Shown: in pieces, positions 28,035 to 64,000 of the stretch | Numbering within the stretch: the stretch's first letter is position 1 | Layout of the letters: every line of letters begins with the position of its first letter | From: Candidatus Zhuqueibacterota bacterium | GTDB taxonomy: Bacteria > Zhuqueibacterota > Zhuqueibacteria > Thermofontimicrobiales > Thiofontviventaceae | Direction: 5' to 3' | Assembly (NCBI GenBank): GCA_016931935.1 | Contig: JAFGDW010000300.1 | Coordinates: 55,274 to 119,273, forward strand | Length of the DNA stretch: 64,000 nucleotides | The notes under the pieces: model-generated | What the model was told of the DNA's origin: nothing | The model's input: the letters and a program-made list of their open reading frames with translations, nothing else | The model's database searches: none | Position numbers and translations under genes: made by a program

Positions 28035-28050
28035 ATAAAGTGTATCCATC

Positions 28051-28156
28051 GTTTCCAGCGTCCCGCTGGAAATACATAAATTGCGGCTCTGCCGCGAGTT
28101 TAAAGTTACAAGGCAGAGCCTTGATATATACGTTCCCAGCGGGACGCTGGAAACGA
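28051..28156. repeat. Nested palindromic element: two hairpin-forming 23-bp arms in inverted orientation flanking a third hairpin
   Basis: Arm cgtttccagcgtcccgctggaaa (28051-73) has its reverse complement at 28134-56 (20/20 nt identical core). Each arm is itself a 9-bp palindrome (tttccagcg/cgctggaaa). Between them sits the hairpin ggctctgcc(28086-94)...ggcagagcc(28113-21). Confidence 0.5.
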
Positions 28157-28199
28157 TTACTAATTCGAATCCAACCACTTTGTAATAAGGAGAATCTCT

Positions 28200-35093: not shown

Positions 35094-35461
35094 TTATATT
35101 GCAATGATATTCCATTATGAATATTCCGGTAGAGAAAATTCATACCATATCCAGTTTCCCTATCCTCCCAACAAATCTCATATCCACCAATCGCCAAATA
35201 AGGCATTCCCAAATCGATAATAGTTTATAATTTTATCCAACATCTTCAGGTAATTCTTTCATCTATCTTCTGCCATACGGACGTTTCCTCCATTAATTAA
35301 AAAATCTTCATTTTGTTCAACAATTGTTATTTTTTCAATTCGAAAAACGATGAAGTATAAATGGAAGCATATCCGAATTACCAAATCAATGTCGGTTTCT
35401 GCAATTTTTTCTTGTGGGAAGCAGAACTGCTTATTTACTAATCAGAGGAGGCGCTACGATC

Positions 35462-38400
35462 ATGCAACAGTACAAAAAATTATTCATAATTACTCTTGTG
35501 TTATTGAGCACGATATTTTCAATGCAGATTGCGCTGGTTGCCCAGGGACAGCCACCGGAGTCGCCCAAAGGCCCGATGGGCATCCCCTTTATGCTTGCAT
35601 TTATGCCTGGCGACAGTGCTAAAATCCCGGTTGAATTTTTTGAATCCGTACCTGCCGATTCGCAGGTCAGCGGTTTTGCCTTTACGTTAGTAAAGAATTC
35701 CAGTGATCTTAAATTTCACGGAGTTGACACAGCAGCTACTGCGCTGAGCCATTGGACAGTTGATTACACCATGTCTGGTGACTCAATTCGAGTACAAGCA
35801 AACGCTCCGGGTGGAGTTTACTTTACGAAACCAGACGGCCCTCCAGCATTGCTTTGTGCTATCCGAGGCATGATCTATCAGGGCGCTGCCGTAGGTGACA
35901 GCATTGGCCTGCAGATTCGCCATGTGTCGATAGTAAAGAAGGGCCAGACGGTGGCGCTACCGGATTCAATGTTTGGCCCATCGATGATAAAATTACAGAC
36001 AGGCGATACTCCTCCACAGCCAGGAAATACAATCGCGTTTACATTTCTCGATACCCAATCGTGGCCTGATTCCAGCTTTAGCATTGATTTTGCCGTTACC
36101 GAGCCGGTTCCTGCGGATTCACAGGTTAGTCGCATTCGCGGAGTGATGGAAGCGATACCAAACGAAGTCATGTGGTCCAGCAGCGAAAGCATGTTGTCGC
36201 CCCAATTCAGTGGCTGGTCACTTATCGTTACACCCGAAAGCGGCCTCGTTGAGTTCGATCTCGAAGCGCCGAATGGAACATATCTCGTCCATGATGGGAA
36301 CGATCCATTTGTTATCTTCAGTCTTGGTGGGAATATATTGTCAACATCGATGCCCGGGACTAATATTGAAGTGCAAGCAGACCGATTATTTCTGACAATT
36401 AAAGGTACAGAATTGGTGACGGATCCGGATAAGGTGCATTCCGGTTTTATCAAGATCATGGGCGATGAACCGCCTCCACCTCCGCCGGGGAACGAATTGT
36501 CATTTTCGTTTGGCCATAGCTTTTCCAAACCGGACTCAGGCTTTGGTTTGGATTTCATGATAACGCAACCGATTCCCGCTGATTCCCAACTTATTCGAAT
36601 TCATGCGAAAGTTGTTGCCAATCCGACCGAGGTCATTTGGACATCCAACGGTCAAATTTTGGCGCCTGAATTATCAAATTGGGCATTAGACATCATCCCC
36701 GGTGATGAATTTGTCGAATTCGAATTAATGTCTATCGATGGTTCCCCGCTTGTGCATGATGGGCAAGATCCATTTATTGTGTTTAATCTTACGGGCGTCG
36801 TTAAGGGTTACGCCACTCCGGATCATGCGATTGAAGTAGTCGCAACTGAACTCGAGCTTGAAGTCAATAATAAAGTCGTAACTGCCGATCCACAAATAAT
36901 CATGCCCGGCAAAATTATGTTGGATGATGGCGAAAATCCGCCTCCACCACCCGATCACGGATACTTATTTTCGTTTAATGAAGCCATATCGGACCCCGGA
37001 TCTTATTTTAATTTAATGTTCGCGTTAACAAGCCCGGTGCCACCGGATTCGCAATTAAGCCGTATCCGCATGGTTGTGCAGAGCATGCCGCCAGCGTTAA
37101 ACTGGGCCGAAACAGGGCATTCACTTCAACCAATTATGAGTGATTGGACATTAACGGTGACACCGGGACCGGAAGCCACCGAATTTGATCTTGTCGCTCC
37201 GCCGGGCGTTTTCCTGGCAACTGATTCATCCATGTCTGGGTTGAATTTAGTTCTGTTTAGCGGTGAAGTCGCACCAGATGCGCCGGCTCAGGGGATGGTT
37301 GATGTTCAGGCCAAAGAACTGTTCCTGACACTCAATGGCGTCGAAAAGACGATCGATCCGATAACTGTTCAACCGGGAAAAGTTTTACTCGGCAATGGCG
37401 AAGAACCACCACCAGGGCAACAATCCCTGTTTGCATTTTTCGATACATTCTCCAAACCGGATTCCAACTTTGCAATGGAATTTGCCATTACACAACCAAT
37501 TCCCGCCGACTCACAGTTAAGCCGGATTTGTGCAGTCGTTCGGGCGATGCCACAGGAGCTGGATTGGTCGCCAACCGGGCACATGCTAGCACCAGGCATG
37601 GAAAGCTGGAGCTTGAATGTAACGGTAGGCAATGATTCGATGATGTTCGATATCCAGGCGCCAACCGGCCAATTCATCACACATGATGCGATGGTGCCGC
37701 TCGTGCTTGCAACATTCGTGGGGGGTGTTCGCCCGTCAGCATCGGTTGAACAGAATATTGAAGTCAAAGCGGAAAATCTAAAGCTGACCATCAAGGGTAT
37801 AGAACATGAGTTTGATCCCGGAATGATTCAACCGGGCAAAGTGCGGTTGAATAATAATCCCGATGGTCCGCCACCGGGAGGGGAATCACTGTTCATATTC
37901 TTCGATACAAACGCTGAACCCGGAACTGATTTTCTGCTTGATTTTGCCGTTGCCATGCCGGTTCCGGCAGATTCAGAAATTAGTCGCTTACAGATCGGCT
38001 TAAAAATTGAACCGAATTTATTGGTGTGGAACGCCGATGAATCAAAAGTCGCCGAGGAGCTTGCGGATTGGACGCTTACATCCACTGCGGCAGGAGATTC
38101 AATGGAGTTCGATTTGCAGTCGACAAGTGGCAGCTTTCTGGTGCATGATGGATTCGATCCATATCGGATTGCTACGTTAGCCGGTTCTGTTCAGGCAAGC
38201 GCACCACAAAATGCCATTATTCAATTAACAGCGACAAAAATTTATGTAACTATGCACGGTGTTGTAACATCAATACCACCGACGTCCATCCCCCCGGTAA
38301 AAATTATGCTCGGTGGTCATGTTGGTCCACCTCCGCCGCCTCCACCGCCTCCGCCTCCAACACCAATTTCATCGGGCGATGGCCGCATGAATCTTGGATT

Positions 38401-49638: not shown

Positions 49639-49767
49639 ATCCTGAATGTTTGTTTACGATAATTTTCATGGATTAAAATTTCATGCAAAGTCAAGCGACG
49701 GTATCTCATCAAGCGAGACTATCACTTAATTTCCTTTATTAAAAATTGAATCATATCAAGCTTATTA

Positions 49768-49812
49768 AACAAAAAAGCATGGCCGCAGGTTCATTTTCCC
49801 CTTGGCCATGCT
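49768..49812 (-). terminator. Rho-independent terminator downstream of the first PilX-like gene
   Basis: agcatggcc(49776-84)/ggccatgct(49804-12), 9-bp GC-rich stem. On the minus strand it is followed by ttttttgttt. Confidence 0.55.
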
Positions 49813-49841
49813 TATAAAATTCGCTGTATTTATAAAATAAT

Positions 49842-50762
49842 TTAATCGTTCCAGGAAAGTATTTTCATTATTTTTTTACTGCCGCCTACATCACCAAACA
49901 ATTCCAGGTACTCCGGATTATATTGAATCGACACATGATTTCCGGTACCGGAAATGTCACCATTGGCCAAAATGCCGCCTACAACAGAACTCTCTGATGG
50001 AGAACCTCCACCGGTAAAATCCATTTCATAAATAACTTCTGATGTCGGATTTAACATATAAAGTACGCCTTCTACACGTGCAGATCCATTAATAACTATA
50101 TCTTTTTCCACGATAAAAATGCCATAAATATGTGTTCCACCACTGACTTTCATATCGCCTTTAATGTAGGTAATATTGGGAATTCCGGCTGCAGAATCGG
50201 CGTAAAAACTGCCATTGGGATATCCATCAGGAGGTTTGACCAGATCATTTGGATCGCCAAAATAATGCCCCTGAGAATCTGCCTTTGTTGCGAGGCCAAG
50301 AATATCAATGTATGGCATTTCACTGGCATTTGTCACCATGAGTGTGCTGTCGACATTGCGATTTTCGTCGAGCGGGGTAACTTTGTCAACATCACCGGTA
50401 GCATAAATTGCTTGCAGACCGACTTCAGATGTCAATTTCAAATCAACAGATACCTGATTCGTATAACTAGCCACATGTCCGACAGAAGTAAGACGCACAA
50501 GCGAATCCATATCATTGATACTTACTTCAAACGAGCCCTCATTACTGGACGTTTCATCGTACCCATCCCGCCAGTTAAAATTGCGTGAGATTTTTGAGAG
50601 TGCAAGGTTCATTCCGGATGTTGCCATATTCAAAGCGCCAATCTGTCCATATTCTTCAACCATTTGTTCGTGCTGCATTGACATACGATTTTGCTGGGTC
50701 ATCAATCCGGATGTAATTGTAAAGCTGATCCCTGCTAAAATGAGGAGTATTGCTTTTCCCAT
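49842..50762 (-). CDS. PilX-like (type IV pilus minor-pilin/assembly, PilX_N-like) membrane-anchored protein, paralog A
   Basis: 306 aa. N-terminal anchor MGKAILLILAGISFTITSGLM, followed by ...ALNMATSGMNLALSKI (PilX_N-like A..AEaG..A helix). C-terminus VEGVLYMLNP...GGGSPSESSVVGGILANGDISGTGNHVSIQYNPEYLE is typical of PilX-like proteins. No prepilin-peptidase G/FTLIE motif. Confidence 0.4.
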   Translation of the reverse strand: MGKAILLILAGISFTITSGLMTQQNRMSMQHEQMVEEYGQIGALNMATSGMNLALSKISRNFNWRDGYDETSSNEGSFEVSINDMDSLVRLTSVGHVASYTNQVSVDLKLTSEVGLQAIYATGDVDKVTPLDENRNVDSTLMVTNASEMPYIDILGLATKADSQGHYFGDPNDLVKPPDGYPNGSFYADSAAGIPNITYIKGDMKVSGGTHIYGIFIVEKDIVINGSARVEGVLYMLNPTSEVIYEMDFTGGGSPSESSVVGGILANGDISGTGNHVSIQYNPEYLELFGDVGGSKKIMKILSWND

Positions 50763-51203: not shown

Positions 51204-52118
51204 TTAATCTTTCCAGGTAAGAATTTGCATAACTCTCTTGCTCTGCCCAATCGAGCCAAATAATTCCATGTATTCTGGCTTATATTGTACCGAAATATGA
51301 CTTCCAGTTCCGGATACATTGGCGTTTGCCAATACCCCACCAACCACAGAGCTCTCTTCAGGGGTACCACCACCTAATGCTGTCAAATCGTAATAAACTT
51401 TTGCGGTAGGATTAAGTAAATACAAAACTCCTTCGACACGAGCTGATCCGTAAAGGATAATATCCTTTTCAACAAGAAAAATTCCGTATATTCTACTTCC
51501 ACCCTGAACTTTCAGAGTACCTTTGATATATGTAACATTCGGAACGTTCCCGACCTTATAAAAACTCCAGTTTGGGTAGCCGTCGTAAGGTTTGATTATA
51601 GCAGACGGGTCTCCAAAAAATTGGTATTGACTTACTGATAATTGTATCAACGGGACCAGATTTAACAATGGCATGGCATCGGCATCCTGAATCAATAAGG
51701 TGCTATCGACATTTCGATGCTCATCCAAAGGTATGACGTTATCTACCGTCGCCGTCGAATAAATCGCATATCGTCCGGCTTCTGTGGTTAATCGTACATC
51801 CACCTGAACTTTATTGCTAGCACCTGATGAATGACCTGTCGACGTAATCCTTACGAGTGAATCCATGTCATTGACTTGCACATCAAATGACCCTGATGAA
51901 ACTGAAGTCTCGCTATAACCTTCCCGCCACGTATAATCACGTTTAATTTTAGAAAGCGCCAGATTCATCCCCGAAGTTGCCAAATTCTTTGCGGCTAATT
52001 CTTCGTATTGTTCAACAACAATTTCATTTTGTTCGCTGATCTGTTTTTGGTGATTTACCAATCTGGTTGAAAAAGTAAAACCAAGACCAGCAATTATCAT
52101 TAACATTGCTTTGCCCAT
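51204..52118 (-). CDS. PilX-like membrane-anchored protein, paralog B (~55% aa identity to paralog A)
   Basis: 304 aa, same architecture. Shares LATSGMNLALSKI..., SGSF.V.VNDMDSLVR.TS.GH, NVDSTL, NVTYIKG.LKV.GG..IYGIF.VEKDI...GSARVEGVLY.LNPT and ESSVVGG.LAN...SGTG.H.S.QY.PEY.ELFG with paralog A. Confidence 0.4.
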   Translation of the reverse strand: MGKAMLMIIAGLGFTFSTRLVNHQKQISEQNEIVVEQYEELAAKNLATSGMNLALSKIKRDYTWREGYSETSVSSGSFDVQVNDMDSLVRITSTGHSSGASNKVQVDVRLTTEAGRYAIYSTATVDNVIPLDEHRNVDSTLLIQDADAMPLLNLVPLIQLSVSQYQFFGDPSAIIKPYDGYPNWSFYKVGNVPNVTYIKGTLKVQGGSRIYGIFLVEKDIILYGSARVEGVLYLLNPTAKVYYDLTALGGGTPEESSVVGGVLANANVSGTGSHISVQYKPEYMELFGSIGQSKRVMQILTWKD

Positions 52119-52399: not shown

Positions 52400-53071
52400 T
52401 TAGTTAACATTTGTATTCGTCAATGGTACGAAGACTGTATCATGCACCGACTTATAAATATAAATACAATCGCGGTAGACGGTATCGGTTTCCGCTTTAA
52501 TATATTCTACCATTTTATCCGGTAGTCGCGCTGCCTGGTCAGGTATTTCCATCAGGCGATTTTCATTATAACTCCACAACTCAAAAATCACCGTTGAGGT
52601 ATCCCGTTCAAACCGGATTTTAATAGGATAATCTTTGTAATTCTTGTTCAGGCCAGTAAGAATCGATCCGAAAATATTGTACGCCGGTCGATTATTTTCA
52701 TAATCTTCCAAAATACTAATATCTTTATTTTGAGCGGTGATTTGAAAGTTCGCAGTAAATTTCCACTGGTTCATTTTCGCCTGTGCCTTATCGCTGACAT
52801 ACTGAAGAAAATAAATTTGATCCGATGGATACAGCCGTACAATATCATTTTCCCCAAAACCATTCAGGCTGACGTCGATGATATCCATGCGCGTCACCAG
52901 CGTTTCGGGAATAAAAAATTCATCGAGAAAAAATTTGATAAGCTTACCGTCTTGAATCGTGACCAACGGTACACTGGTTTGATTGACAATTAATTCATCG
53001 CCGGCGTGAACCGAAATTGTTTGAATCAAGAATATAGTACTAATAAAAAAAAGTACGATCATTGATCGCAT
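52400..53071 (-). CDS. Hypothetical secreted protein (last gene of the exbBD-containing operon)
   Basis: Start set at MRSMIVLFFISTIFLIQTISVHA (signal peptide), 10 nt after the upstream gene's stop. The track ORF extends 43 codons further into the neighbouring gene. Confidence 0.45.
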   Translation of the reverse strand: MRSMIVLFFISTIFLIQTISVHAGDELIVNQTSVPLVTIQDGKLIKFFLDEFFIPETLVTRMDIIDVSLNGFGENDIVRLYPSDQIYFLQYVSDKAQAKMNQWKFTANFQITAQNKDISILEDYENNRPAYNIFGSILTGLNKNYKDYPIKIRFERDTSTVIFELWSYNENRLMEIPDQAARLPDKMVEYIKAETDTVYRDCIYIYKSVHDTVFVPLTNTNVN

Positions 53072-53081
53072 TTCGTGCTCC

Positions 53082-54119
53082 TTATCGCATGGTTTTCGTT
53101 TTTGCAGTTGTCCACCATGATAAAAATATTTTATAAAAATCTTCGGTGACTTCAGGGGTGGGTGTTTTTTGTTGGGAAATAAATGATGAAATCGTGCCAT
53201 CAGCAGCCCGTTTGATTGAGCCCAGCCGTAAGTAGTTGCTTTTCTCTTTCAATCCGCTATCGATGAGCAGCGTTAAATTATTTCGTTCGATTAAACAAAT
53301 TCGAATTTCCAAAATATTTATTTTGCACAGCAAAAACAACTCGTATACTTTTGAATTTATTTCAAACCGCGTATGTGACGTAAGATTTCCCGGCTCATAA
53401 TTTAAAAACCGTTTAAACACACTGCTAAATACCACGGGATTCGATTGCATCCACTGAATCAATTCGTGAATAATTGGCGATAAATCCTTTTCGTTTTCCT
53501 TAATGTCATCCGGGCGCAATTCAATTTTTATAATTTCCGCATCGGGGATTGCCTTGTCTACTTCCAATTTGTTAAATTGCGTTGGTGCAACAAACCGGAA
53601 TGCCTGCAAATCCAGCGGGGTGTCATCCGGCAAATCGACGATAATTTGTGGCACCTGTCCGGCTTCGGGAAACGGCACATCGTGCAGACTGGCGTATTCG
53701 GCCTGCTGCATCGAGACATTTACCTGATTCTTTGGCTGTTGATGCCGGGCGAACTGCATTTGCCGATCCACTCGCTCAGTCTGTGGAACAGCCAGCGCCT
53801 GGTATGTTTTACGGGGAAGGTCCAGCTTGCTGGTGATGTCCGCATCCAGCGATTCAATTGACGGGATAATAATTGCATTGTCGCGGTATCGCGTGATTTT
53901 GTCATCGGGCTGCGGTAATCGTGAATGGCCGGTTTTCTTTGGCGTTGTTTCTTCAATATGAAAAATTGTCCAGTCGATTTCTTTCTGTGGTGCACGAAAC
54001 AGATACTTCCCCGGAGATACCCGGATTCCGGCGAGTAACAAGTAGGTAAAAATCAACCCGATCATTAATATAAGATCGCAGATGCGTTTTTCTATTTTAA
54101 CACGATCACTAAATTTCAT
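53082..54119 (-). CDS. Membrane-anchored hypothetical protein in the TonB position of an exbB-exbD-exbD operon, with no recognisable TonB C-terminal domain
   Basis: 345 aa. N-terminal TM ICDLILMIGLIFTYLLLAGI and a modestly Pro/Gln-rich middle. Its start overlaps the exbD stop by 11 nt. Confidence 0.45.
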   Translation of the reverse strand: MKFSDRVKIEKRICDLILMIGLIFTYLLLAGIRVSPGKYLFRAPQKEIDWTIFHIEETTPKKTGHSRLPQPDDKITRYRDNAIIIPSIESLDADITSKLDLPRKTYQALAVPQTERVDRQMQFARHQQPKNQVNVSMQQAEYASLHDVPFPEAGQVPQIIVDLPDDTPLDLQAFRFVAPTQFNKLEVDKAIPDAEIIKIELRPDDIKENEKDLSPIIHELIQWMQSNPVVFSSVFKRFLNYEPGNLTSHTRFEINSKVYELFLLCKINILEIRICLIERNNLTLLIDSGLKEKSNYLRLGSIKRAADGTISSFISQQKTPTPEVTEDFYKIFLSWWTTAKTKTMR

Positions 54120-54510
54120 AATGAATGCTCTTGGGAATGCCGTTCATTTCACACAGGTCAATCAGATCGACGGTTGTTTGAATCATTGTATTTTCGTCCG
54201 GGTAGATTATCACCATCATATCCATGCCCTGCGCACGCCAATCGTCACGCACACGCTGGATCAATGCATCGACATCGGATATTTTGGTGATCAATGGCCA
54301 AAAGGTATCACCGCATGATAGCTGGAATTCGGTATCGCTATTAACGCGAATGGTTAATACCTGTCGTTTGACAATCGCCGGACTTTCGTTTCCACCGGTA
54401 GGAAGTTTAATTTGGGTTTTGACAGTAAAATCGGAAATACCGATAAAACCGAGTAATAATATCAACACAACATCAATTAACCGAATGATGAGACCACCTT
54501 TGCTGAACAT
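54109..54510 (-). CDS. exbD: ExbD/TolR biopolymer transport protein
   Basis: 133 aa. GGLIIRLIDVVLILLLGFIG TM plus an ExbD periplasmic domain. Confidence 0.8.
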   Translation of the reverse strand: MFSKGGLIIRLIDVVLILLLGFIGISDFTVKTQIKLPTGGNESPAIVKRQVLTIRVNSDTEFQLSCGDTFWPLITKISDVDALIQRVRDDWRAQGMDMMVIIYPDENTMIQTTVDLIDLCEMNGIPKSIHYEI

Positions 54511-54567
54511 ATGTAAATGACTCCTGATATTGTCTATTTAATATTTCACAGATACAAAATGCCCGAC

Positions 54568-54966
54568 TCATTTCCCTTTCCGAATCACATCAATGCCTTT
54601 CAGCAACTGCCGCTGATCACAAAGGTTTGCCAGTGCGATGGTGTATTTTATCGGCGTATCCCAATTCGCGCGAATTTGCACCCGTGGCCGTTTTTCAGAA
54701 TCTTCCAGGCCAGCGAGCTGTTTGTCTATATAGCCAACAAGTTCATCATGGGACGTGAGCGTTTGCGTTTCATTGTCCACAAGAAAATTCCCATCCCGAT
54801 TAATCCCGATAATTAAGGTTTCCCCGTTTGACGGATTGGTAAGTGGCGTGGCTTCACTCGTTGGCAGCTCAATTTGACTATGCCGACTGATTTCACTAAT
54901 GGAAATAAAACCAAATAACAGAATCAGCACCACATCAATCAGCCGAACGATTATTCCACCTTTTTG
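54568..54966 (-). CDS. exbD: ExbD/TolR biopolymer transport protein (second copy)
   Basis: Start at MQKGGIIVRLIDVVLILLFGFISI. Paralog of the downstream exbD. Confidence 0.8.
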   Translation of the reverse strand, partial: QKGGIIVRLIDVVLILLFGFISISEISRHSQIELPTSEATPLTNPSNGETLIIGINRDGNFLVDNETQTLTSHDELVGYIDKQLAGLEDSEKRPRVQIRANWDTPIKYTIALANLCDQRQLLKGIDVIRKGK

Positions 54967-54970
54967 CATG

Positions 54971-56473
54971 CTATTGCCCCAATACTTCAAATTCTATTTT
55001 GGAACGACGCAAGCCCTTGGCGGTCACAACGATTGAATTGAATCCCGGCTCGGTATTCAGTGTGAAATAACTTTTGGCATATCCGTTTGAATCGGTTTGT
55101 GCAACATAACTATTGCGATTGCCCGGGAAGTACCCTTTCCCCATTTTGACTTTAAAAAGCACAGTTTCATTGGGAATCGGATTCTTGAAACAATCGAGTA
55201 ACTGGACAACAAACGGTTCACCAATTTCCCGACCTGCGGGTAAATTTTGATGATTCCCGGATACATATTTTAGCTCGGATGGATCTGCCGGACGCCCCAG
55301 TGCTTCAAACTGGACAAATTTACCGTTATTGTTCAGCCGGGCATTCACAATATTAGTACCGGCAACATTGCCCAGTGTCAGATATGTTTCCGCCAGCCCT
55401 GCTTCATCGGTCAAAATTTCTTCAACTTTATTGCCGTTTTTAAATGTACCGTTGCCATTTTCAATTTTGAAAGTAACCAGTTGATGGATCATACTGTTTC
55501 CGTCTTCATCGTGTACTTTTACCTGCAACGGTTTTTTAAGACGTGTATTCACGGGCGCCGCCTGATGATCTCCGGCCAGCGGTGCAATTGTCAGGTGCTT
55601 CGGCACGGATTCCGGTTCCGGCGTGACTTTTTTCTCGGAAGTAAATAAGTTCTCATCTTCAAAATCATTAATCTCTGCTGCTTCATGTTGCGGCGCTTGA
55701 TAGCGGAAACCTTGTTGCTGGGAGATGAGCAACCGCAATCTCAATTCTTCACCTTTAGTCAGAATCGTATCCATCTGTTTGCGAAATGCACCCTGCAATT
55801 GGGTTGAGAAAAAATTCAAAACAATACTGACGACCAATCCCATCAACGTGGTGACGAGCGCCAGTCCCATTCCATGGAGTATCACTTGATTGTCGAGATT
55901 TCCACGGAAAAATGTAACGAACATTCCCCAGACAGTTCCCAACAAACCGAGCGCCCCGGCGGTATCCGATAAGAACGATATTTTCGATTGGAATGTGCTG
56001 AATTTATCCTGCTGTAACTGAACATGATTGGTTATTTCGTAATGGGCATCGACCGCCGAATTTGTCGAGCGATACACATTCAGCATGTTCATGTATAGCT
56101 GATGGAGTAAATTATTCGGTGTATTTTGTACTGTCTGTTCGATATGCCGGAGCGATGCCGCTTTTGTATTCAATTCTAGAATATCTTTTGATCGGCGTTT
56201 GTCCATAAGTAAATCGGCATATCTGTAAAGCATTGTGGCTAAGCCAGCGACCAAAACCAGGATAATCACCCAGCGTAATCCACCAGCCAGTCGGGTGATT
56301 TCCCAAATCGATTTAAAATCGGATAACCGGGTTAAAGAGCCGGGATCGACCACTTGAGCAGCGGCAACATCGAGCGTCGAATCGATTGCTGCTGCCGCCG
56401 GGGCGTCCTGGCAGAATCCTTGTGAAGTCACAAGGATTATAAACATCATGAATAGAAATGCAACGCGCTGCAT
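54971..56473 (-). CDS. MotA/TolQ/ExbB proton-channel family protein with a ~230-aa C-terminal extension containing two Ig-like (Big/invasin-like) domains
   Basis: Start at MQRVAF (signal peptide). Three TMs with the ExbB signature AGALGLLGTVWGMFVTFF / GMGLALVTTLMGLVVSIVLNFF. C-terminus LQVKVHDEDGNSMIHQLVTFKIENGNGTF...EILTDEAGLAETYLTLGNVAGTNIV... and a second similar unit ...TVLFKVKMGKGYF...AQTDSNGYAKSYFTL...NSIVVTAKG resemble Big_1-type beta-sandwiches. Confidence 0.7.
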   Translation of the reverse strand: MQRVAFLFMMFIILVTSQGFCQDAPAAAAIDSTLDVAAAQVVDPGSLTRLSDFKSIWEITRLAGGLRWVIILVLVAGLATMLYRYADLLMDKRRSKDILELNTKAASLRHIEQTVQNTPNNLLHQLYMNMLNVYRSTNSAVDAHYEITNHVQLQQDKFSTFQSKISFLSDTAGALGLLGTVWGMFVTFFRGNLDNQVILHGMGLALVTTLMGLVVSIVLNFFSTQLQGAFRKQMDTILTKGEELRLRLLISQQQGFRYQAPQHEAAEINDFEDENLFTSEKKVTPEPESVPKHLTIAPLAGDHQAAPVNTRLKKPLQVKVHDEDGNSMIHQLVTFKIENGNGTFKNGNKVEEILTDEAGLAETYLTLGNVAGTNIVNARLNNNGKFVQFEALGRPADPSELKYVSGNHQNLPAGREIGEPFVVQLLDCFKNPIPNETVLFKVKMGKGYFPGNRNSYVAQTDSNGYAKSYFTLNTEPGFNSIVVTAKGLRRSKIEFEVLGQ

Positions 56474-56489
56474 GTCAATCTCCTTAATT

Positions 56490-58193
56490 TCATTGCCGTT
56501 TCGCATGTCGCACTGCAGGGAGTGACTGAGCCTCCTGCTGTAATTCCGGTGTCATGACCGCCGGCTCAGTCGAAAAGTCAATGCTCGTTCGTTGATGTCG
56601 AGTCACAATTACAAGCTGCCCTTTTGCGGAACGTTGAATATTTTTATTGTCATAAGTCCAGGTGAACTGATAAGAATATACGCCAGGGCGCAGCTTTTCC
56701 ATGATCGGTTTGTCCAGTTCCCATACAATCCGTGAAGGAATCCGGCCAATACCATCAAACCATTGGATGCCCAGCCCCTTGTCATCCTGGATTATCAAAT
56801 GCCACGATTTTGCCCGGCCACGTCGTCCTTTAATGCGGAATTCGATGCGGTCAGGGTTACATTTATAAGATTCGTTCGATTGATTGGTTAATTTCTGATC
56901 ATTTTTTCCCGGCATTGGTAATTTTTCACGGCGGATTCGGGCAGTCGGGATCGCCTCGAGCAACTCGTCCGCTACCTTTGTGGAGTCACGCATTAAAATC
57001 TCCGCGATGCCGTTCGCCGGATCGATCACATGCTGTCCAACCTTTTGTAATGATTGCTGATATGCCGCTGTCAAGATTTCTGTTGAATCCTTTGAACCAC
57101 CAATAAAAACGATATACCGTGTTTGCGATTCTGGAGCAACGGGTTTATTTATTTCAGTTTTTAATGCGGTGGTCAAATGCCGCCACTCACGTTTGTTCAA
57201 TTTTTCATCGACACGCTCTTCAGAACAAATTCGTTGAACCTCAATCTGCTTTACCGAAGCGTCTACCTGAAGCAGTGCATCTTCTACCGGTGGTGCGGCT
57301 TTATAATTGATGATTGGACGTTCATCACCAAAAGCAAATACCAGACCAACCTGATGCGAACCGATGCTGAAATCCTGAAATTCATTCGTCGGATAGTCGT
57401 ACGTGTAGAACATTTGCATACGATCGGCAACACTCAGTCGTCCCTCGAATTCAATACCATCGGACGTATAACCAAAACGTAATATGCCGCGATCGTTAAT
57501 TTTATAGTCAAGCATTCCGCCGAGCGTTTCCTGATCCAGCAGTGTGATACCAGCAGCGAAACTGCCACGCATATAGCTAATGCCAACATCGAGACGATAA
57601 GGCAGGCGCGCGTCACCGCCGACAAGCGATAAATTTGGCTCGGTTAAATTACTCATGCCGACACCGATCCGCAAATCATAGCGCGGCTGAAACAATAAAC
57701 CAACGCCTACACTATGCGCCAGCGATTGCACGCCATTGGCAAATAACGGATCGTTCGCATCACCCAACTGAAACTGATCCTGCTGATACGACTGATAGAA
57801 GATTTGCCACGATGCTCCCACACTTAGCGATTCCAGCAACCGATAGGCTGTCTGTGCCTGAATGTGTGACTGCTGGTACATCGCAATGCCAAATTGCTGC
57901 CCGTTGATACCAATCACCCACTCACGATCCAACAGGAACGGACTGGTAATATTGAAATAATTCGCCCGCAAGCCAAACTTGTCCTGCTCAAGAAAGCCAA
58001 CGTGCAGCATCTTAACACCCAGCGATACATGCCACGGCTGCAGTGCAATCACAGCCGGATTAATCAGCGAACTGCGGCAATCAAACACATCCGCCGGATT
58101 GCTGTCAATCCAATGTTGGGCTTTCAGCGGCCCGACTGCCACAAGTATGCTGATGGTGACAAGAATGAATGTTTTCGGACGATTTAATTTCAT
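56490..58193 (-). CDS. PorP/SprF-like T9SS outer-membrane protein with ~270-aa C-terminal extension
   Basis: 567 aa. Signal peptide MKLNRPKTFILVTISILVAVGPLKAQ. The N-terminal ~290 aa carry ...SSLINPAVIA (family NPAxxG/A motif) and an alternating beta-strand pattern. It lies directly downstream of a type-B-CTD cargo gene, which is the classic sprB-sprF arrangement. The C-terminal part (WHLIIQDDKGLGIQWFDG...PGVYSYQFTWTYDNKNIQRSAKGQLVIV) is beta-sandwich-like. Confidence 0.5.
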   Translation of the reverse strand: MKLNRPKTFILVTISILVAVGPLKAQHWIDSNPADVFDCRSSLINPAVIALQPWHVSLGVKMLHVGFLEQDKFGLRANYFNITSPFLLDREWVIGINGQQFGIAMYQQSHIQAQTAYRLLESLSVGASWQIFYQSYQQDQFQLGDANDPLFANGVQSLAHSVGVGLLFQPRYDLRIGVGMSNLTEPNLSLVGGDARLPYRLDVGISYMRGSFAAGITLLDQETLGGMLDYKINDRGILRFGYTSDGIEFEGRLSVADRMQMFYTYDYPTNEFQDFSIGSHQVGLVFAFGDERPIINYKAAPPVEDALLQVDASVKQIEVQRICSEERVDEKLNKREWRHLTTALKTEINKPVAPESQTRYIVFIGGSKDSTEILTAAYQQSLQKVGQHVIDPANGIAEILMRDSTKVADELLEAIPTARIRREKLPMPGKNDQKLTNQSNESYKCNPDRIEFRIKGRRGRAKSWHLIIQDDKGLGIQWFDGIGRIPSRIVWELDKPIMEKLRPGVYSYQFTWTYDNKNIQRSAKGQLVIVTRHQRTSIDFSTEPAVMTPELQQEAQSLPAVRHAKRQ

Positions 58194-58240
58194 AATTAGT
58201 ACTTGAAACGTACAATTGTTCTATCAATTTCTGTGCATGG

Positions 58241-58357
58241 ACATCCCCCTGATTCCATCTCGCTGCCCGCAAGCGGGGCGAGGTAGAATATTCCCCCTTC
58301 GAAGGGAGACGATCTCATTTCGCCGCTTGCGGCAACGAAACGGGATCAGGGGGATGT
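58241..58357. repeat. Compound palindromic element in the adhesin-porP spacer
   Basis: Outer 13-bp inverted repeat acatccccctgat(58241-53)/atcagggggatgt(58345-57). It encloses three internal palindromes: ctcgctgcccgcaagcggggcgag, cccttcgaaggg and gccgcttgcggc. Confidence 0.45.
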
Positions 58358-58382
58358 TCGCACTAAACAATTTTAAACTTCA

Positions 58383-61300
58383 TTACCGCGCCAATACCAC
58401 ATATCCCCGCGATACATGGCGATCTCCGTCCTGGAGTACGTACAAATACACGCCCGGTAAAACTAATTGTCGGTCGCGGTTCATTCCATCCCAGACAAAT
58501 GTTGATGCGGATGGGGTATGTAACGTAATGACCGGTCGCCCCTGCATATCAAATACTTTTAATGAAGGGTGACTTAGCTGGAACCGTGAAAAATCAAATT
58601 CCACTTCGTCGTTAAATCCATCATTATTCGGGGTGAACGGATTGCTGCTAAGCCGCAATTCACCTTCGTTGACACGGATATAGATATCCACGACATTGTT
58701 CGTCTCATCAGATTCGGTGATACGATTGTCCGGATCGACGGTAAAACGAATCAGGTGTCTGCCAATTGTATCAAATTGCACGGCTGCATCCATCCTCTGT
58801 TCAAAAGACACTGGCAGATTATTCACTGTTTCCGCGTCGATGATTTCACCTTTGTGTTCAAACTTCATATCGAATGGCTGCTCCACGTCAACTTCGTTCG
58901 CGATCACCTGTCCGTGAACATTCACAGATGAATGAACAAGCAAAGTGGTGCTGTCCGCTGAAATCGACGCCACCAAATCGGGTAACGCTTCACGAATAAA
59001 AAAATACGATTGCCAATTTTGCAGACAATTTGCCGGTTCGCTGAGATCGCATGCATCAACGCGTACAGTCACTTTTTCTCCTGATGCAAAACCTGTATCC
59101 GGTGTGTATTCAATTATAAATTCATTCGGAGTACCGGAAATATCAGGTGTTACATCAATATTATTCACCTGCACCTGAATGCTCTCCTGCGATACGCCTG
59201 CAACATCATCCAATAATCGAAATAGTATCGTCGGTCGGTTCAGTACATTGGTTTCGCCTGGTGCAGGTTGCATATCGACGATGTAGGGCGCAATAGTATC
59301 AACACGCGTCCAAAAAATAAATTCAGCATCGCTTTTGTTCGGCGGCACGATCAAATCGGCTGCATTCGCTGAAATACGGATTTGCTGATTGTATGCAAAG
59401 CGATTTTCGGGCTTCCATTCAACCGTTGTGTATTTGGGTGTTCCAGCAATATTGGGTTGGACAATTTCATTATTCACTCGTAACTGAATCGAACCAGCGT
59501 CCACTCCACTTTGCGTGTCCGTAATTTCAAACTGAAGTGAACTGGTAACAGGAACTTCAACGGCAGAATCGCCGGGTGAAATAAATCGAATAACCGGCGG
59601 CTGCACATCTGTTTCGGGATAAAATACGTATTTTTCCGTCGGCATTATGTTAGGAGTATCCGCAAGGTCAGCAGCGTCAATTTCCACTGTTACGCTGTCG
59701 CCATAAGAAAATGGCGTCGCTGGTTTGTACATTAATTGATAATCATAAACAAAACCGTTAATCATCGGTCTGACTGACCGGCCATTGATGCGCATTTTAA
59801 TTGATTGTAGATCGACACCCGACTGCAAATCCGCCAGATGCACGGCGACGGAATCAGTAATCCGGACATTCGTTTGTCCGGGCGTCGGATGGTGGCCGTA
59901 AGTAAACGGCGCTTGTCTGTCACGTCGGTCAGTCAACTTGAACGTGTAGGTTGAATCCAACAAATTTGCCGGATGTGAAAGATCGCGTGCATGAATCCGA
60001 ACACGAATTTGCTGGCCATGCGCCTGATTGGGTGGCATGTGTGACGACACAAACCAAACATCCCCTTCGCGATGCATTTCCAACACCGATGCCATTGAAA
60101 CGTCGTTCACCACAATCCCAACCGCCGATGTATCGACGCCGGCGACAGCATCCGTTAATCGGAAGGCAATATGGGCGGATGGTAGCACGCCTGTATCTCC
60201 CGGTGCAGGCGTTAAATAGCTCAAAATCGGCGGCTGCTTGTCTTCTATGATTGAAAATGAATAATCATCGGGATTCATCTGATTGGGATGCCGGGCATAA
60301 TCCTGTGCGGTCAGCCGGACAGAGACAATTTGATTGTACTGAAATAGTGTATCCGGTTGCCAGCTTATCCGATACCCCTGACTGAGTTTCTGAAATGATG
60401 GCACGACACTCCCGCCATTCACGCGGAGATTGACGAAACTGGTGTCGACACCGCTCATATCGTCCTGAATAGTCATCGAAATGGCTGTATTTCTGGGCAC
60501 CTGCTCAGCCGACTTTGCCGGTTGGTGCGCCGATGTCCAGGGCGGAAGCGAATCCCGCAATGTATAAAACTGATACTTCAATTCAGATGCATTTCCCGGC
60601 TGGGCCCTATCCTTTGCGGTAATGCGGATATTGATAGTATCATTTTCCATAAATTGCTGTGCTGGGTGAAATGTCAGTGTGCTGCCATCCACAAGCAGCG
60701 GTTCTGCATTTTTGGCATCGACATACAAACGCACATCGGCAACACCCGTGCGATCATCCGTTACTTTGAAAGAAATATTCGTATTCAGTGGGACATTCGT
60801 TTGACCTGCTGTTGGCGATACCGGTGCTATCACCGGTCCCAATGTGTCCTGTGCAATAAAGAATCGATAGAAATAAGGTGGCTGAATCGCATTCGGCGGA
60901 TTTGATTTATCGGCTGCAGCTACTGTGACACTCACGGTATCATTATAGGCAAACGACAATTCGGGCATCAAAATCCGTGTATGCAACATATCGCCATCAA
61001 TTGTCGTTGGCACAAGCGGATTATTCTGCACGTGCACCTGTATCGTGTTCCAATCCACACCAGCGATTGTATCCGCCAGCATAAATTGAATGGCGAGCTG
61101 TTTCACATCATTGGTCGAATTTGCGAGTGGATAAACAGGCACAACCCGGGGGGGCGTCACATCACGTTGCAGGGAAAATTGATACGATTCATCCATAGCA
61201 TTTGGCGTGTATGCCATATCCTGTGCTGTTACACGAACAGTCACATGATTATTGAATAAAAACGGAGTATTCGGCTGCCAGGTGAGCGTAATTATTTTGT

Positions 61301-63224
61301 TCTCAGCGCCAATCTGCATTGCTGGCATCACCGGTGCGTTATTGACCCACATGTGAATCGAATTCACCTCGACGCCACGATAATCATCATGTACCTCGAC
61401 GATAATTGGTTTATCCAGGGGCGCATCCAATGCATCGGCTAATGGTTGCACAGGATTAAGGTAAGGCGCAACCGAATCCGGAAGCATTTTGCCGAGCCCA
61501 TAATACGTAATCAATGTCTTGGATTCACCTGCCTGCATAAACACCGGTTCCCACCACATGGCGACAGCGCTATCGAACGTAATTCTGCTGGTATCGTTAA
61601 GGGTGTAATCCCATGGTTGGCGGAAGATATCGCGCCAGCGCAAAATCGCGAAACGGTCGGGAACCGTCGCATCGTATTTTTTTAGCGTTCCCTGTGCGGA
61701 AAAAATCGTACGGGTTGGATCGCCCTCAATCGCCGTCCACCACTCGGGAATTGCTGCCCCAATAAACTCCTGCTCCATCTGGACAAAATCACCATCCGCA
61801 GTTTTGATGGGCGCACCATCATTTTCACCAAGCATGGTATCAAACAAAATCCGTAACCCAATAACTCTGCCAGCCCCGTTATTGGTAATTGTGTATCTGA
61901 GCTCAGCCGTATCTTCGATTCTATCCACCGACCACTCACTACGCGTCAGCGAAATTGTTTGATCAACACGTACATTCTTGTATGTCCAACTCCAGGTAAC
62001 GGCCGGATCGCCATTTCCCAGTTGAATAGCTGTCGGAATGCTTCGTTGACCGTTAGTCACCACAGCCTCACCCTGGTCCGATCCGAACACTGCCACTTCA
62101 TCTTCAACTTTGAGGGTTGTATATGATGTATGCGGCCAGGGATGGCCGAACAGCAACGGCTTGTTATCGTCCCAGAATGTATTTGGGAGACCTTCCAGCG
62201 TTTGCATGGAGAAATTTGTGCCCGGATATTTATCCGTGACCATCACCTCAATAAATTCATTTTGAATTTTTGTATAAGTCACCGGTGTCAATGAAAAATT
62301 GATATTGGGGATGGTATCACCTGAAGTCACGACAACCGGATATGGAATTTCGGCGGTATGATATTTTGTTGGGTCGACACTGAAAATATATATACGATAA
62401 TTTCCGGGAGCTAATCCTGCTGCACAGTATTCACCGGTTTTCCAGCTACTATTGGCTTCGGAACACCACTGATGCGTTTCCCAATCTTCGACAACCACCC
62501 AGGCAGATATAGGCGCAGCAGGCTGGCCATCGTCCAGTACAAGCCCTTTTATTGCCCCACCTTTAGCCAACTGAAAATCAATATCATCGACCGTGTCACC
62601 AACTGTGACCGTTACCGGATAGGCCATATCCCACGTCGGCGAATTTTTATAGTACGTGGTAATGTAACCGAGTCCCGGATTTCCGGCCAGGATAATATGG
62701 CGTCCCGCTGGCAATGCCGGACTGATATATTCTCCCTGTCGGTTATTCATCGCATAGCCACGATCGATTTTTTCCCGGGCATCATAAAAACCAACATTAA
62801 TCGCATCACGAACTATGTCACCGTTGGGCGTACGTATAATACCCCGGATAAAACCGCCCTGATCGAGATGGAAATCGATACCAGTGATAATACTTTCCGG
62901 ACTTATTTTGATGGTTACAGCATCCGCCGGATTCAGAACGTTATTATAGTACTCATCCACATAATCATCCACATTAACGACTCGAACAATATATTCGCCA
63001 GTCGCGATGGATTGAATACGGTAATGACCGGAGGCGTCTGTTCTGGCGTCATAGTCAAAATGCGTGCCGGCACTCTGCTTGGCGCGAACCACGACATCCG
63101 CTAACGTACGACCATCATAGCTGTATACTGTGCCTTCAATAGTGCCTGCGTGTGCAAATTCATATGAATATAGCATGGCCACGACACCCAAAAGCACACC
63201 GATTCGATGCAAGTGCATTTTCAT
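58383..63224 (-). CDS. SprB-like giant cell-surface adhesin with T9SS type-B C-terminal sorting domain
   Basis: Start at MKMHLHRIGVLLGVVAMLYSYEFAHA (signal peptide). N-terminus has three carboxypeptidase-regulatory-like domains (GTIEGTVYSYDGRTLADVVVRA...TDASGHYRI). Eight ~95-aa SbsA/Big_5-like Ig repeats follow, with consensus D..PP.I....P..G.TNV.....I.F...D..SGVD..SI...VN. C-terminus NPFTPNNDGFNDEVEFDF...VFDMQGRPVITL...WDGMNRDRQLVLPGVYLYVL matches the gliding-motility type-B CTD. Confidence 0.75.
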   Translation of the reverse strand: MKMHLHRIGVLLGVVAMLYSYEFAHAGTIEGTVYSYDGRTLADVVVRAKQSAGTHFDYDARTDASGHYRIQSIATGEYIVRVVNVDDYVDEYYNNVLNPADAVTIKISPESIITGIDFHLDQGGFIRGIIRTPNGDIVRDAINVGFYDAREKIDRGYAMNNRQGEYISPALPAGRHIILAGNPGLGYITTYYKNSPTWDMAYPVTVTVGDTVDDIDFQLAKGGAIKGLVLDDGQPAAPISAWVVVEDWETHQWCSEANSSWKTGEYCAAGLAPGNYRIYIFSVDPTKYHTAEIPYPVVVTSGDTIPNINFSLTPVTYTKIQNEFIEVMVTDKYPGTNFSMQTLEGLPNTFWDDNKPLLFGHPWPHTSYTTLKVEDEVAVFGSDQGEAVVTNGQRSIPTAIQLGNGDPAVTWSWTYKNVRVDQTISLTRSEWSVDRIEDTAELRYTITNNGAGRVIGLRILFDTMLGENDGAPIKTADGDFVQMEQEFIGAAIPEWWTAIEGDPTRTIFSAQGTLKKYDATVPDRFAILRWRDIFRQPWDYTLNDTSRITFDSAVAMWWEPVFMQAGESKTLITYYGLGKMLPDSVAPYLNPVQPLADALDAPLDKPIIVEVHDDYRGVEVNSIHMWVNNAPVMPAMQIGAENKIITLTWQPNTPFLFNNHVTVRVTAQDMAYTPNAMDESYQFSLQRDVTPPRVVPVYPLANSTNDVKQLAIQFMLADTIAGVDWNTIQVHVQNNPLVPTTIDGDMLHTRILMPELSFAYNDTVSVTVAAADKSNPPNAIQPPYFYRFFIAQDTLGPVIAPVSPTAGQTNVPLNTNISFKVTDDRTGVADVRLYVDAKNAEPLLVDGSTLTFHPAQQFMENDTINIRITAKDRAQPGNASELKYQFYTLRDSLPPWTSAHQPAKSAEQVPRNTAISMTIQDDMSGVDTSFVNLRVNGGSVVPSFQKLSQGYRISWQPDTLFQYNQIVSVRLTAQDYARHPNQMNPDDYSFSIIEDKQPPILSYLTPAPGDTGVLPSAHIAFRLTDAVAGVDTSAVGIVVNDVSMASVLEMHREGDVWFVSSHMPPNQAHGQQIRVRIHARDLSHPANLLDSTYTFKLTDRRDRQAPFTYGHHPTPGQTNVRITDSVAVHLADLQSGVDLQSIKMRINGRSVRPMINGFVYDYQLMYKPATPFSYGDSVTVEIDAADLADTPNIMPTEKYVFYPETDVQPPVIRFISPGDSAVEVPVTSSLQFEITDTQSGVDAGSIQLRVNNEIVQPNIAGTPKYTTVEWKPENRFAYNQQIRISANAADLIVPPNKSDAEFIFWTRVDTIAPYIVDMQPAPGETNVLNRPTILFRLLDDVAGVSQESIQVQVNNIDVTPDISGTPNEFIIEYTPDTGFASGEKVTVRVDACDLSEPANCLQNWQSYFFIREALPDLVASISADSTTLLVHSSVNVHGQVIANEVDVEQPFDMKFEHKGEIIDAETVNNLPVSFEQRMDAAVQFDTIGRHLIRFTVDPDNRITESDETNNVVDIYIRVNEGELRLSSNPFTPNNDGFNDEVEFDFSRFQLSHPSLKVFDMQGRPVITLHTPSASTFVWDGMNRDRQLVLPGVYLYVLQDGDRHVSRGYVVLAR

Positions 63225-63720
63225 GATGCTTTGGTGCAATAATCTTGTTTTGGATTTTTTAAAGATAAATAGGATGGACGAAATTATCCTATGTTCCCTT
63301 TCCACGGCTGCAAATATAGGATGGCTTCCTCCATTTGAACTGCTTTATCAACTGGAGGTTTGTAACAAAGATGATAGAACTTGCGACTACATTATAGCAA
63401 AAGGTTGGCTAAAATGCAAGTTTTTTTTACTAAACAGAGATAATTTTATCAATAAATATATTATCTTTATGGGATTATAATAAAATCAAATATATCATTT
63501 CAATAGATACAAAATGTTAACCCAATATTCTCAACCACTAATACGCATCAAAAAAATGTCACCATTCTATCAATATTGTAACTTTTCTTGAATTACCGGA
63601 TTGTAATTCATAAAAAACAATATAGCTATGAAAGATAATTTGTAATCGTTCACAGGGTTTCAGAATGGTACTCCAATTTTTGGTGCCCTACATACTGTCT
63701 TCAGGAAACAGTTGATCAGA

Positions 63721-63787
63721 CAAGGAGATGGGGCGACAAGGTGACAGGGAGAAACAATAAATTGTTTATCATCTCCCCATCTCCTTG
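63721..63787. repeat. Hairpin with 13-bp stem enclosing an AT palindrome, in the 5' region of the adhesin gene
   Basis: caaggagatgggg(63721-33)/ccccatctccttg(63775-87). Inner palindrome aacaataaattgtt(63753-66). Confidence 0.35.
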
Positions 63788-64000
63788 TCACCCTGTCTCC
63801 CACTCTCGATGCCTGGTGTTCTAATATTACGACCGAGCCACGAAAATATTGCCTTCATACACCTGTGAACGGTTACGATAATTTGTATTTTTCAATTAAT
63901 GATGAAGCGAACTTGCTACACCTTATTATTTCAAAATCAGATAGTACGTTTAACGTCAGCGAGCCGTCAAACGGGATGCGCAAGTCAGACAACTTAGTCC

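Follow-up and report, generated by a model that had tools for sequence, protein, structure and literature searches.

What does an ExbB/ExbD-type motor drive when its neighbours are a secreted adhesin and the outer-membrane carrier of that adhesin? The question is posed by seven minus-strand genes in a 64,000-nucleotide stretch of DNA from a Candidatus Zhuqueibacterota bacterium (assembly GCA_016931935.1, contig JAFGDW010000300.1), which is called the window here and to which all positions refer. These genes encode, in order, a surface protein with a type 9 secretion system (T9SS) C-terminal domain (CTD) of type B, a PorP/SprF-family outer-membrane carrier, an ExbB/TolQ-type proton-channel subunit extended by immunoglobulin-like (Ig) domains (ExbB-Ig), two ExbD/TolR paralogs, an anchored protein of 345 aa and a secreted protein of 223 aa.

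The array appears to represent a cassette conserved in the FCB superphylum, of which it is one copy. The core of this cassette consists of ExbB-Ig, two ExbD proteins and one member each of the 345-aa and 223-aa families, usually accompanied by TPR lipoproteins. In KSB1, Calditrichota and Rhodothermota/Balneolales a client module, the adhesin with its cognate carrier, is joined to the core. The association of the motor with the type-B pair and with a new transducer family is solid. We favour the reading that the motor delivers force to the adjacent adhesin and carrier; judged from gene context, we give it somewhat less than an even chance, because Gemmatimonadota possess the core without the pair and the two sub-modules do not co-vary.

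Organization of the gene array

All seven genes that the preliminary description of this DNA had read from the minus strand are present. The adhesin gene extends from 63224 to 58383 (1613 aa counted from ATG), and its open reading frame (ORF) reaches back to a GTG at 63305 (1640 aa). It is followed by the genes for the carrier (58193 to 56490; 567 aa, with a signal peptide), ExbB-Ig (56473 to 54971; its length of 500 aa follows the call in public assemblies, and the ORF has its first ATG at 56506), ExbD paralog 1 (54969 to 54568; 133 aa), ExbD paralog 2 (54510 to 54109; 133 aa), the 345-aa protein (54119 to 53082) and the 223-aa protein (53071 to 52400), which begins with a signal peptide (...TISVHA|GD). 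From the adhesin to the 223-aa gene the intergenic distances are 189, 16, 1, 57, -11 and 10 nt. The statement that, after the spacer, all gaps are at most 16 nt or an overlap of 11 nt is correct at every junction except that between the two ExbD genes (57 nt). One transcript for the whole array is predicted and seems plausible. The best promoter-like match upstream of the adhesin is a sigma-70-like TTGAAA-18-TATAAT (11/12) in an AT-rich region at 63474 to 63503 on the minus strand; since promoter-like sites are overall no commoner here than in shuffled sequence, we regard it as a weak candidate for the cassette promoter. Pfam searches bore out the domain calls for the adhesin, the barrel, ExbB, both ExbD proteins, the 345-aa protein without TonB_C and the secreted 223-aa protein.

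Conservation of the cassette

One genome per species was scanned among KSB1/Zhuqueibacterota, Calditrichota, Rhodothermales/Balneolales (Rhodothermota) and Gemmatimonadota/Longimicrobiales, using iterative hidden Markov models (HMMs) seeded with the window proteins for annotation. This yielded 80 loci, numbered with the prefix L, and the counts given below refer to those that could be assessed in each case. ExbB-Ig is followed by two ExbD genes in 69/70 loci, a member of the 345-aa family follows the motor genes in all 60, and the 223-aa family is represented in all 46. The extended carrier lies directly upstream of ExbB-Ig in 28 of the 38 KSB1/Calditrichota loci and in 14/16 loci of Rhodothermota/Balneolales. 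In four more KSB1/Calditrichota loci it is found downstream of the 223-like gene, the loci with the carrier-adhesin pair moved to the downstream side being L018, L020, L022 and L033. A CHU_C protein adjoins the carrier in 38/40 loci, and the adhesin and carrier adjoin the core in about 85% of loci outside the Gemmatimonadota.

The order adhesin, PorP, ExbB-Ig, ExbD, ExbD, 345-aa and 223-aa protein, for which a neighbourhood check in related genomes had been proposed, is thus conserved; context look-ups returned the same gene order at 30-40% identity. With protein identities of 30-50% across dozens of loci, so constant an arrangement is far beyond chance. What is established is which genes and domains are present, their conservation across the families, the synteny and the lack of TonB_C. 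Five to six genomes contain two cassettes each, in which every part has diverged to 21-43% identity, from which we surmise an ancient duplication of the whole cassette and cognate specificity of its parts.

Outside the clade of the window, a TPR lipoprotein of approximately 500 aa is encoded between the 345-like and 223-like genes, and another of approximately 350 aa often precedes the adhesin; both are absent from the clade of the window. In most cassettes the TPR proteins bear lipoboxes (L058:13404-14918 and 3903-5006; equivalents in L005, L006 and L056), and the larger one has a conserved VPAGVDS motif shortly past the lipobox cysteine.

Response regulators flank some cassettes, with two PatA_N+Response_reg genes downstream in L002/L003:15336-18887 and a LuxR-type regulator upstream in L004:8726-9409 and L005:2681-3370. 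These are hints of regulated or behavioural control of the cassette. In Gemmatimonadota a plus-strand gene upstream of exbB was discarded as a shadow ORF on the basis of G+C content at third codon positions; the real gene is divergent, encodes approximately 450-480 aa and matches no family.

The motor proteins

ExbB-Ig matches MotA_ExbB (PF01618) with 54.4 bits (cutoff 22.9) and Big_1 with 48.5 bits, the latter as two domains. The protein is laid out as a signal peptide, a periplasmic N-terminus, three transmembrane (TM) helices, a linker and the two Big_1 Ig domains. Residues 34-245, from the periplasmic N-terminus through TM3, align (phmmer) to the Serratia ExbB chain 6YE4, and the TM2-TM3 channel core (FLSDTAGALGLLGTVWGMF...GMGLALVTTLMGLV) is invariant across the ExbB-Ig family. 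The NCBIfam ExbB, TolQ, MotA and PomA equivalog scores are all far under their cutoffs, which argues that ExbB-Ig represents a distinct subfamily. There are no further hydrophobic segments past TM3 and the flanks obey the positive-inside rule; by ExbB topology, therefore, both Big_1 domains are predicted to be cytoplasmic, as had been proposed. This architecture, unusual in itself for an ExbB, recurs in the 264 relatives detected, most of them 480-580 aa in length with the same combination of MotA_ExbB and Big_1.

Both ExbD proteins match PF02472 and possess the motif RLIDVVLILL with the TM aspartate (RLIDVVLILLFGF in paralog 1 and RLIDVVLILLLGF in paralog 2). A regular expression of the RLIDVVLILL type matches 130/164 ExbD family ORFs. 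Together with the invariant TM2-TM3 core of ExbB-Ig, these aspartates speak for a competent motor.

The adhesin and its carrier

The adhesin begins with the signal peptide MKMHLHRIGVLLGVVAMLYSYEFAHA and continues through CarboxypepD_reg, four Big_5 domains and CARDB to a C-terminal CHU_C domain (Pfam). CHU_C scores 34.9 bits (cutoff 27) over residues 1554-1637 of the 1640-aa ORF, at its extreme C-terminus; the type-B model TIGR04131 scores 28.5, under its cutoff of 35. The CTD consensus PNPFTPNxDGFND...WDGRD..G...PGVYLY is kept in 44 cassette adhesins. Passenger domains differ by lineage (Big_5/CarboxypepD_reg versus FG-GAP/ASH/HYDIN-Ig) while CTD, carrier and motor are constant.

The type-B cargo of the T9SS stays bound to a dedicated PorP/SprF carrier, and in Flavobacterium johnsoniae SprF is energised via its periplasmic C-terminal tail, which a disulfide bond ties to the GldK track, itself in motion (PMC12635249). 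The PorP/SprF nature of the 567-aa protein, which the preliminary description had left for HMM searches to refute, is supported by a PorP_SprF (PF11751) match of 35 bits (cutoff 22.3) confined to residues 94-285; TIGR03519 scores 40.8, under its cutoff of 90.55. Following the signal peptide, a beta-barrel (residues ~22-289) leads into an extension of approximately 280 aa, comprising a linker, a helical region and an Ig domain, which by homology to SprF is probably periplasmic. The Ig domain is a FlgD_ig/CTD-like beta-sandwich encoded by 56562 to 56855 on the minus strand (residues ~447-544). Comparison of the C-terminal carrier profile with the adhesin CTD profile (hhalign) gave a probability of 97% and an E value of 5.7e-11, which points to homology between the domain that closes the carrier extension and the core of the adhesin's own type-B CTD. 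Pfam FlgD_ig was matched in 17/50 carrier family members, and matches of the carrier C-terminus to PDB sequences of the PorU CTD and FlgD were weak. Among 55 carrier homologues, gathered from the loci by the iterative HMMs (a word-based search gave only two proteins), no column has cysteine in at least 20% of the sequences, and none has CxC in its last 60 aa.

The 189-nt spacer between adhesin and carrier (58194-58382) had been described as structured, and so it is: its folding energy is -91 kcal/mol (z = -9.2), owing to a long imperfect palindrome of approximately 117 nt at 58241 to 58357, to which no strand is assigned. As a part of the cassette it fares less well. The nearest relative, L088, has a spacer of 76 nt without significant structure (z -1.07), and within the window the motif is confined to its own two arms; the hairpin was accordingly rejected as a conserved regulator. 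Since the L088 spacer is unstructured and similar hairpins occupy other intergenic sites of the genome, we consider it a genome-specific element. Further long, near-perfect intergenic hairpins lie at 63716-63808 and 28048-28157, and all three differ in sequence. The two hairpins tested gave z values of -9.2 and -6.25, no U-tract follows the hairpins, including the one in the spacer, and they are not conserved in the nearest relative. Rfam returned only hairpin-like miRNA noise, at a second hairpin upstream. These hairpins are possibly REP-like palindromic elements or RNA stabilisers.

The 345-aa family and its 223-aa companion

The 345-aa protein, which is identical to a hypothetical protein from a metagenome-assembled genome of candidate division KSB1, possesses an N-in TM helix (residues ~3-31), the motif KEIDWTIFH past the helix, a linker of approximately 150 aa predicted to be disordered, and a C-terminal domain (residues ~208-344) ending in FYKIFLSWW. 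In the predicted model (pLDDT, the per-residue confidence score, 80-90) the C-domain is formed by helices, a six-stranded antiparallel sheet and a last helix (alpha-beta6-alpha). It has no homology to TonB_C, and an identification as such was rejected. It has no significant match in the PDB, the sole hit among PDB sequences, the designed repeat protein 7RDR, being spurious. Neither the 345-aa nor the 223-aa protein belongs to a family in Pfam or NCBIfam.

An exhaustive HMMER search collected 250 cluster representatives of the 345-aa family, nearly all of approximately 350 aa and with the C-domain as their conserved part. Among 72 members, one face of the TM helix (A-T-L-Y-L spacing), the post-helix motif and the C-domain are conserved. 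The motif lies 15-25 residues past the helix with the consensus Y.EID..RF.P, and parallels the "motor box" of TolA/TonB (PMC12204202); the linker has a median length of approximately 165 aa and contains 9% proline. We regard these proteins as a candidate new family of inner-membrane-anchored, periplasm-spanning force transducers.

The 223-aa protein accompanies the 345-aa family throughout. Besides a signal peptide it contains several motifs that are invariant, and searches of PDB sequences and Pfam revealed no relative of its family. In Gemmatimonadota a 223-like domain forms the N-terminus of a protein of approximately 600 aa (L056:14842-16608). The same fusion is found in L048, L054, L065, L070, L074, L080, L082 and L084, with no adhesin or carrier nearby, and the rest of it is composed of three EF-hand-like repeats (DxDxSGxxD…IPCxVW) with a conserved cysteine in each.

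A proposed mechanism

Motor stoichiometry, protein contacts and output are what we infer from these data. The T9SS would export the adhesin, which would remain on its carrier. The carrier has no SprF-type Cys-x-Cys tail to the GldK track and would offer in its stead the periplasmic extension that ends in the CTD-like Ig domain. An ExbB-Ig pentamer presumably surrounds a heterodimer of the two ExbD paralogs, and proton flow through this channel would set the transducer in motion. The transducer C-domain would then pull on the carrier at the outer membrane, probably via the 223-aa protein, joined by the TPR lipoproteins in cassettes that have them, and by that force the adhesin would be deployed, moved or released. 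Through its cytoplasmic Ig domains the motor could be attached to a partner in the cytoplasm or to other motors beside it. That the motor drives carrier and adhesin is the simplest reading because the tail has been replaced, the array itself supplies genes for a motor and a transducer, and the unit has been inherited and duplicated together.

In its most ambitious form the proposal would make the cassette a self-contained adhesin engine, independent of GldLM and the GldK track, in which a 5:2 motor, the 345-aa transducer and the 223-aa partner pull on the Ig-bearing extension of the carrier. We think this form unlikely, at roughly one chance in four. If it were true, KSB1, Calditrichota and Rhodothermota would have a third, independently evolved way to propel or actuate a surface adhesin, be it for gliding or for adhesion that depends on force, and the cytoplasmic Ig domains of ExbB would be an anchoring or steering point in the cytoplasm.

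Several observations weigh against force transfer to the adhesin. No carrier or CHU_C gene is present near the core (within 10 kb) in any of the ten Gemmatimonadota loci, and L004 and L044 likewise have neither adhesin nor carrier; the core must thus have a function independent of a type-B pair beside it. In L001 (complete genome CP070762.1) the cassette stops after the first ExbD, with no 345-like or 223-like gene within 10 kb. A histidine is found in the TM window of only 9/74 members of the 345-aa family, and the His/SHLS motif of TonB/TolA is missing. The fold of the 223-aa protein was not obtained, single-sequence AlphaFold2 giving a pLDDT of 34.5. In a mirror-tree test on 39 complete cassettes from which the shared signal had been removed, a test that is weak, the partial r of either the 345-aa C-domain or the 223-aa protein with the carrier was approximately 0. 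The values were 0.48 for the 345-aa C-domain against the 223-aa protein and 0.27 for the carrier against the adhesin CTD. Since the 345-aa protein co-varies with its partner and not with the carrier, direct contact between transducer and carrier is not favoured.

In L001:3574-12142 the order is adhesin, carrier, ExbB-Ig and one ExbD, after which genes for multihaem cytochromes follow on the opposite strand.

The preliminary description had proposed a motor dedicated to the adhesin/PorP pair. The linkage is conserved, as proposed, but it is not obligate, as the ten Gemmatimonadota loci and a few others demonstrate, and the coupling itself is a reading of gene context.

Alternative explanations

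The alternative that survives best is an autonomous module for outer-membrane maintenance or tethering, Tol-Pal-like or otherwise, with the adhesin and carrier as neighbours by co-regulation or shared envelope context and no force transferred to them. The sequence of motor, transducer, periplasmic partner and TPR protein parallels tolQ-tolR-tolA-tolB-pal-cpoB, the core is 100% conserved in loci with and without the adhesin and carrier, and the co-variation of the 345-aa C-domain stays inside the core. Yet the cassette lacks a peptidoglycan-binding domain of the Pal/OmpA type, a TolB beta-propeller and a TolA C-terminal domain, and its TolQ and TolR equivalog scores are far under the cutoffs. 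In several genomes there are two cassettes that have diverged deeply and that each possess an adhesin and carrier of their own, which is unusual for a housekeeping system, and the carrier has remained adjacent in lineages at 30% identity even where the pair lies on the downstream side. We judge this explanation unlikely as it stands, though a serious competitor to force transfer.

The CTD-like Ig domain of the carrier could, alternatively, dock on the normal energy chain of the T9SS (GldM/PorM and the PorN/GldK hub), replacing the SprF disulfide, while the ExbB/ExbD module serves elsewhere, for example in assembly or quality control, where it would move the 223-aa protein and TPR lipoproteins. 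Such docking would suit a carrier domain that is homologous to a T9SS CTD, would follow the precedent of SprF, which couples to the T9SS hub via its periplasmic tail (PMC12635249), and would agree with the missing co-variation of the 345-aa and 223-aa proteins with the carrier. It leaves unexplained why motor, transducer and partner were duplicated jointly with each adhesin and carrier, and why the two modules have stayed adjacent. We hold it to be improbable.

An ordinary Ton system, in which ExbB/ExbD energise TonB-dependent transporters via the 345-aa protein as a divergent TonB or via a TonB_C protein upstream, next to an unrelated adhesin, is very unlikely. The order ExbB-ExbD-ExbD-X is that of Ton operons in the FCB group, and a genuine TonB_C gene does lie 0.77 kb upstream of the adhesin. 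Past the right edge of the window, a public contig from this organism (L087:3-3253, equal to window ~63994-67245) encodes BatD (604 aa), BatE (TPR+SH3, 252 aa) and a TonB_C protein of 198 aa (PF03544, 3.9e-12), which combines a TM helix with a Pro-rich linker. Its gene begins 10 nt past BatE, and the 770 nt between the end of that gene and the start of the adhesin hold a hairpin and promoter-like sites; we read the TonB_C gene as the probable tail of the BatD-BatE operon. The BatD-BatE-TonB_C trio also stands upstream of the cassette in L007, a 50%-identity relative, and TonB_C precedes the adhesin in L083; besides L087, these are the only two of 86 other loci searched in which TonB_C was found. 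The earlier assertion that a protein without TonB_C fills the TonB slot thus holds for the 345-aa protein itself, but not for the neighbourhood as a whole. Likewise, as had been claimed, no TonB-dependent receptor is nearby: ORFs of at least 150 aa in the 64-kb window contain no TonB_dep_Rec or Plug domain. Together with the conserved synteny with the type-B pair, this speaks against a Ton system.

Finally, a Zorya-like anti-phage defence built on a MotA/ExbB-type channel, or any other defence system, is effectively refuted by gene content, as the PADLOC ZorA models match the channel core only weakly (best E 8.4e-5 over ~85 residues) and within its generic MotA/ExbB part, there is no ZorB (OmpA-type), ZorC, ZorD, ZorE or other PADLOC match in the cassette, and the genes encode envelope proteins and T9SS cargo.

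Neighbouring genes

Two paralogous minus-strand genes beyond the array, at 49842-50762 and 51204-52118, encode proteins of approximately 305 aa each that are 58% identical, and are spaced 281 and 441 nt from their neighbours. They had been called PilX-like, a label unsupported by any match in Pfam, NCBIfam or PADLOC. With no family match and absent from all other loci, they were rejected as parts of the cassette. A hydrophobic helix lies at the N-terminus of each, and their C-terminal region is rich in glycine (…GGSRIYGIFLVEKDI…GSARVEGVLY…). At 49695-49857 on the minus strand, Rfam weakly matched the group I intron model (20.4 bits versus a gathering score of 50, E 0.17), which is probably noise.

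Elsewhere the window encodes an outer-membrane biogenesis cluster (1286-11913) with LpxA, LpxC-FabZ, LpxD, OmpH, BamA and TamB, a PorV-like barrel (20834-21850; PF19572, 30.6 bits), a Sortilin/BNR protein of 1814 aa with a type-A T9SS CTD (35414-40858), lipopolysaccharide genes, an RND pump and MFS transporters. The PorV-like gene and the type-A CTD protein provide a T9SS context for the cassette in this organism. No gldKLMN or sprA is visible in the 64-kb window. As to the Bat genes past its edge, Bat-type vWA proteins have recently been proposed as motor-driven force transducers, and it may be no accident that these genes lie next to a motor cassette.

Significance

Known outputs of ExbB/TolQ/MotA-type 5:2 motors are nutrient import, envelope maintenance, flagella, myxobacterial gliding, T9SS/GldLM and Zorya. 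If the favoured reading is true, the type-B adhesin and carrier of the T9SS would be added to this list. The 345-aa proteins would be a second family of force transducers that are neither TonB nor TolA, beside the vWA class of 2025. A folded domain in place of the tail, and a motor encoded next door, would offer a natural alternative to the energising of SprF through its periplasmic tail, published in 2025, and the energising of carriers outside the Bacteroidota would thereby become directly testable. As the cassette occurs in the cultured Rhodohalobacter sp. 8-1 (L058), genetics are feasible.

Comparison with known systems

No description of this cassette was found in the literature searched in full text, the closest concept being the vWA-type force transducer.

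The cassette shares with Ton systems a MotA_ExbB channel with ExbB topology, two ExbD proteins with the TM aspartate and, as the genes that come next in most cassettes, one for a TPR protein and one for another periplasmic protein. It differs in the transducer, whose C-domain is not TonB_C and whose TM helix has no conserved His/SHLS, in the two cytoplasmic Big_1 domains of its ExbB, and in its neighbours, which are a T9SS type-B adhesin and carrier rather than a TonB-dependent transporter.

The Agl-Glt machinery of Myxococcus xanthus is composed of the TolQ-like AglR, the TolR-like AglQ and AglS, the TonB-like GltG/GltJ, outer-membrane barrels and the adhesin CglB. The likeness is one of composition: one TolQ/ExbB-like and two distinct TolR/ExbD-like proteins, one or more anchored proteins spanning the periplasm, one or more outer-membrane barrels, a surface adhesin, and cytoplasmic extensions that could link to intracellular partners. 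Unlike Agl-Glt, the cassette has a transducer without TonB_C and an adhesin that is T9SS type-B cargo instead of a vWA lipoprotein, and with 7-9 genes it is far more compact.

The gene organization of Tol-Pal (PMC12204202) resembles that of the cassette in its order of motor, transducer, periplasmic partner and TPR protein, and the co-variation of transducer and partner is a further likeness. There is no TolB, Pal/OmpA or TolA C-domain in the cassettes of the window, L058 or L056; a CpoB-like TPR lipoprotein is present in most loci, but not in the window, and the multiple diverged copies per genome and the linkage to an adhesin set the cassette apart.

Transducers of the vWA type were proposed in 2025 in the same paper that describes the "motor box" (PMC12204202). 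They have in common with the 345-aa family a TM helix, a disordered or Pro-rich linker and a globular C-domain that is not TonB, and their genes likewise come after one TolQ-like gene and a heterologous pair of TolR-like genes, accompanied by a TPR gene. The C-domain of the cassette protein is predicted to be alpha-beta6-alpha and not vWA (no Pfam VWA match), the SHLS histidine is missing, and the family is tied to a T9SS carrier and adhesin.

The SprB/SprF pair of F. johnsoniae gliding (PMC12635249) is congruent with the client module in two respects: CHU_C/type-B CTD cargo is encoded directly beside a PorP/SprF-family barrel, and the C-terminus of the carrier is the periplasmic site where energy would couple. 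The cassette carrier has no CxC or conserved cysteine and bears the ~280-aa extension with its CTD-like Ig domain instead. The adhesin, with 1.6 kaa, contains Big_5/CARDB and not SprB-like repeats. Whereas energy in F. johnsoniae is supplied by GldLM via the GldK/GldN track, the cassette encodes its own ExbB/ExbD-type motor and transducer. Taken together, the pair appears by Pfam definitions to be type-B cargo and carrier without the CxC feature of SprF, and the motor appears to be one without TonB_C, SHLS or a TonB-dependent transporter. Its gene context suggests a second way to power adhesins secreted by the T9SS.

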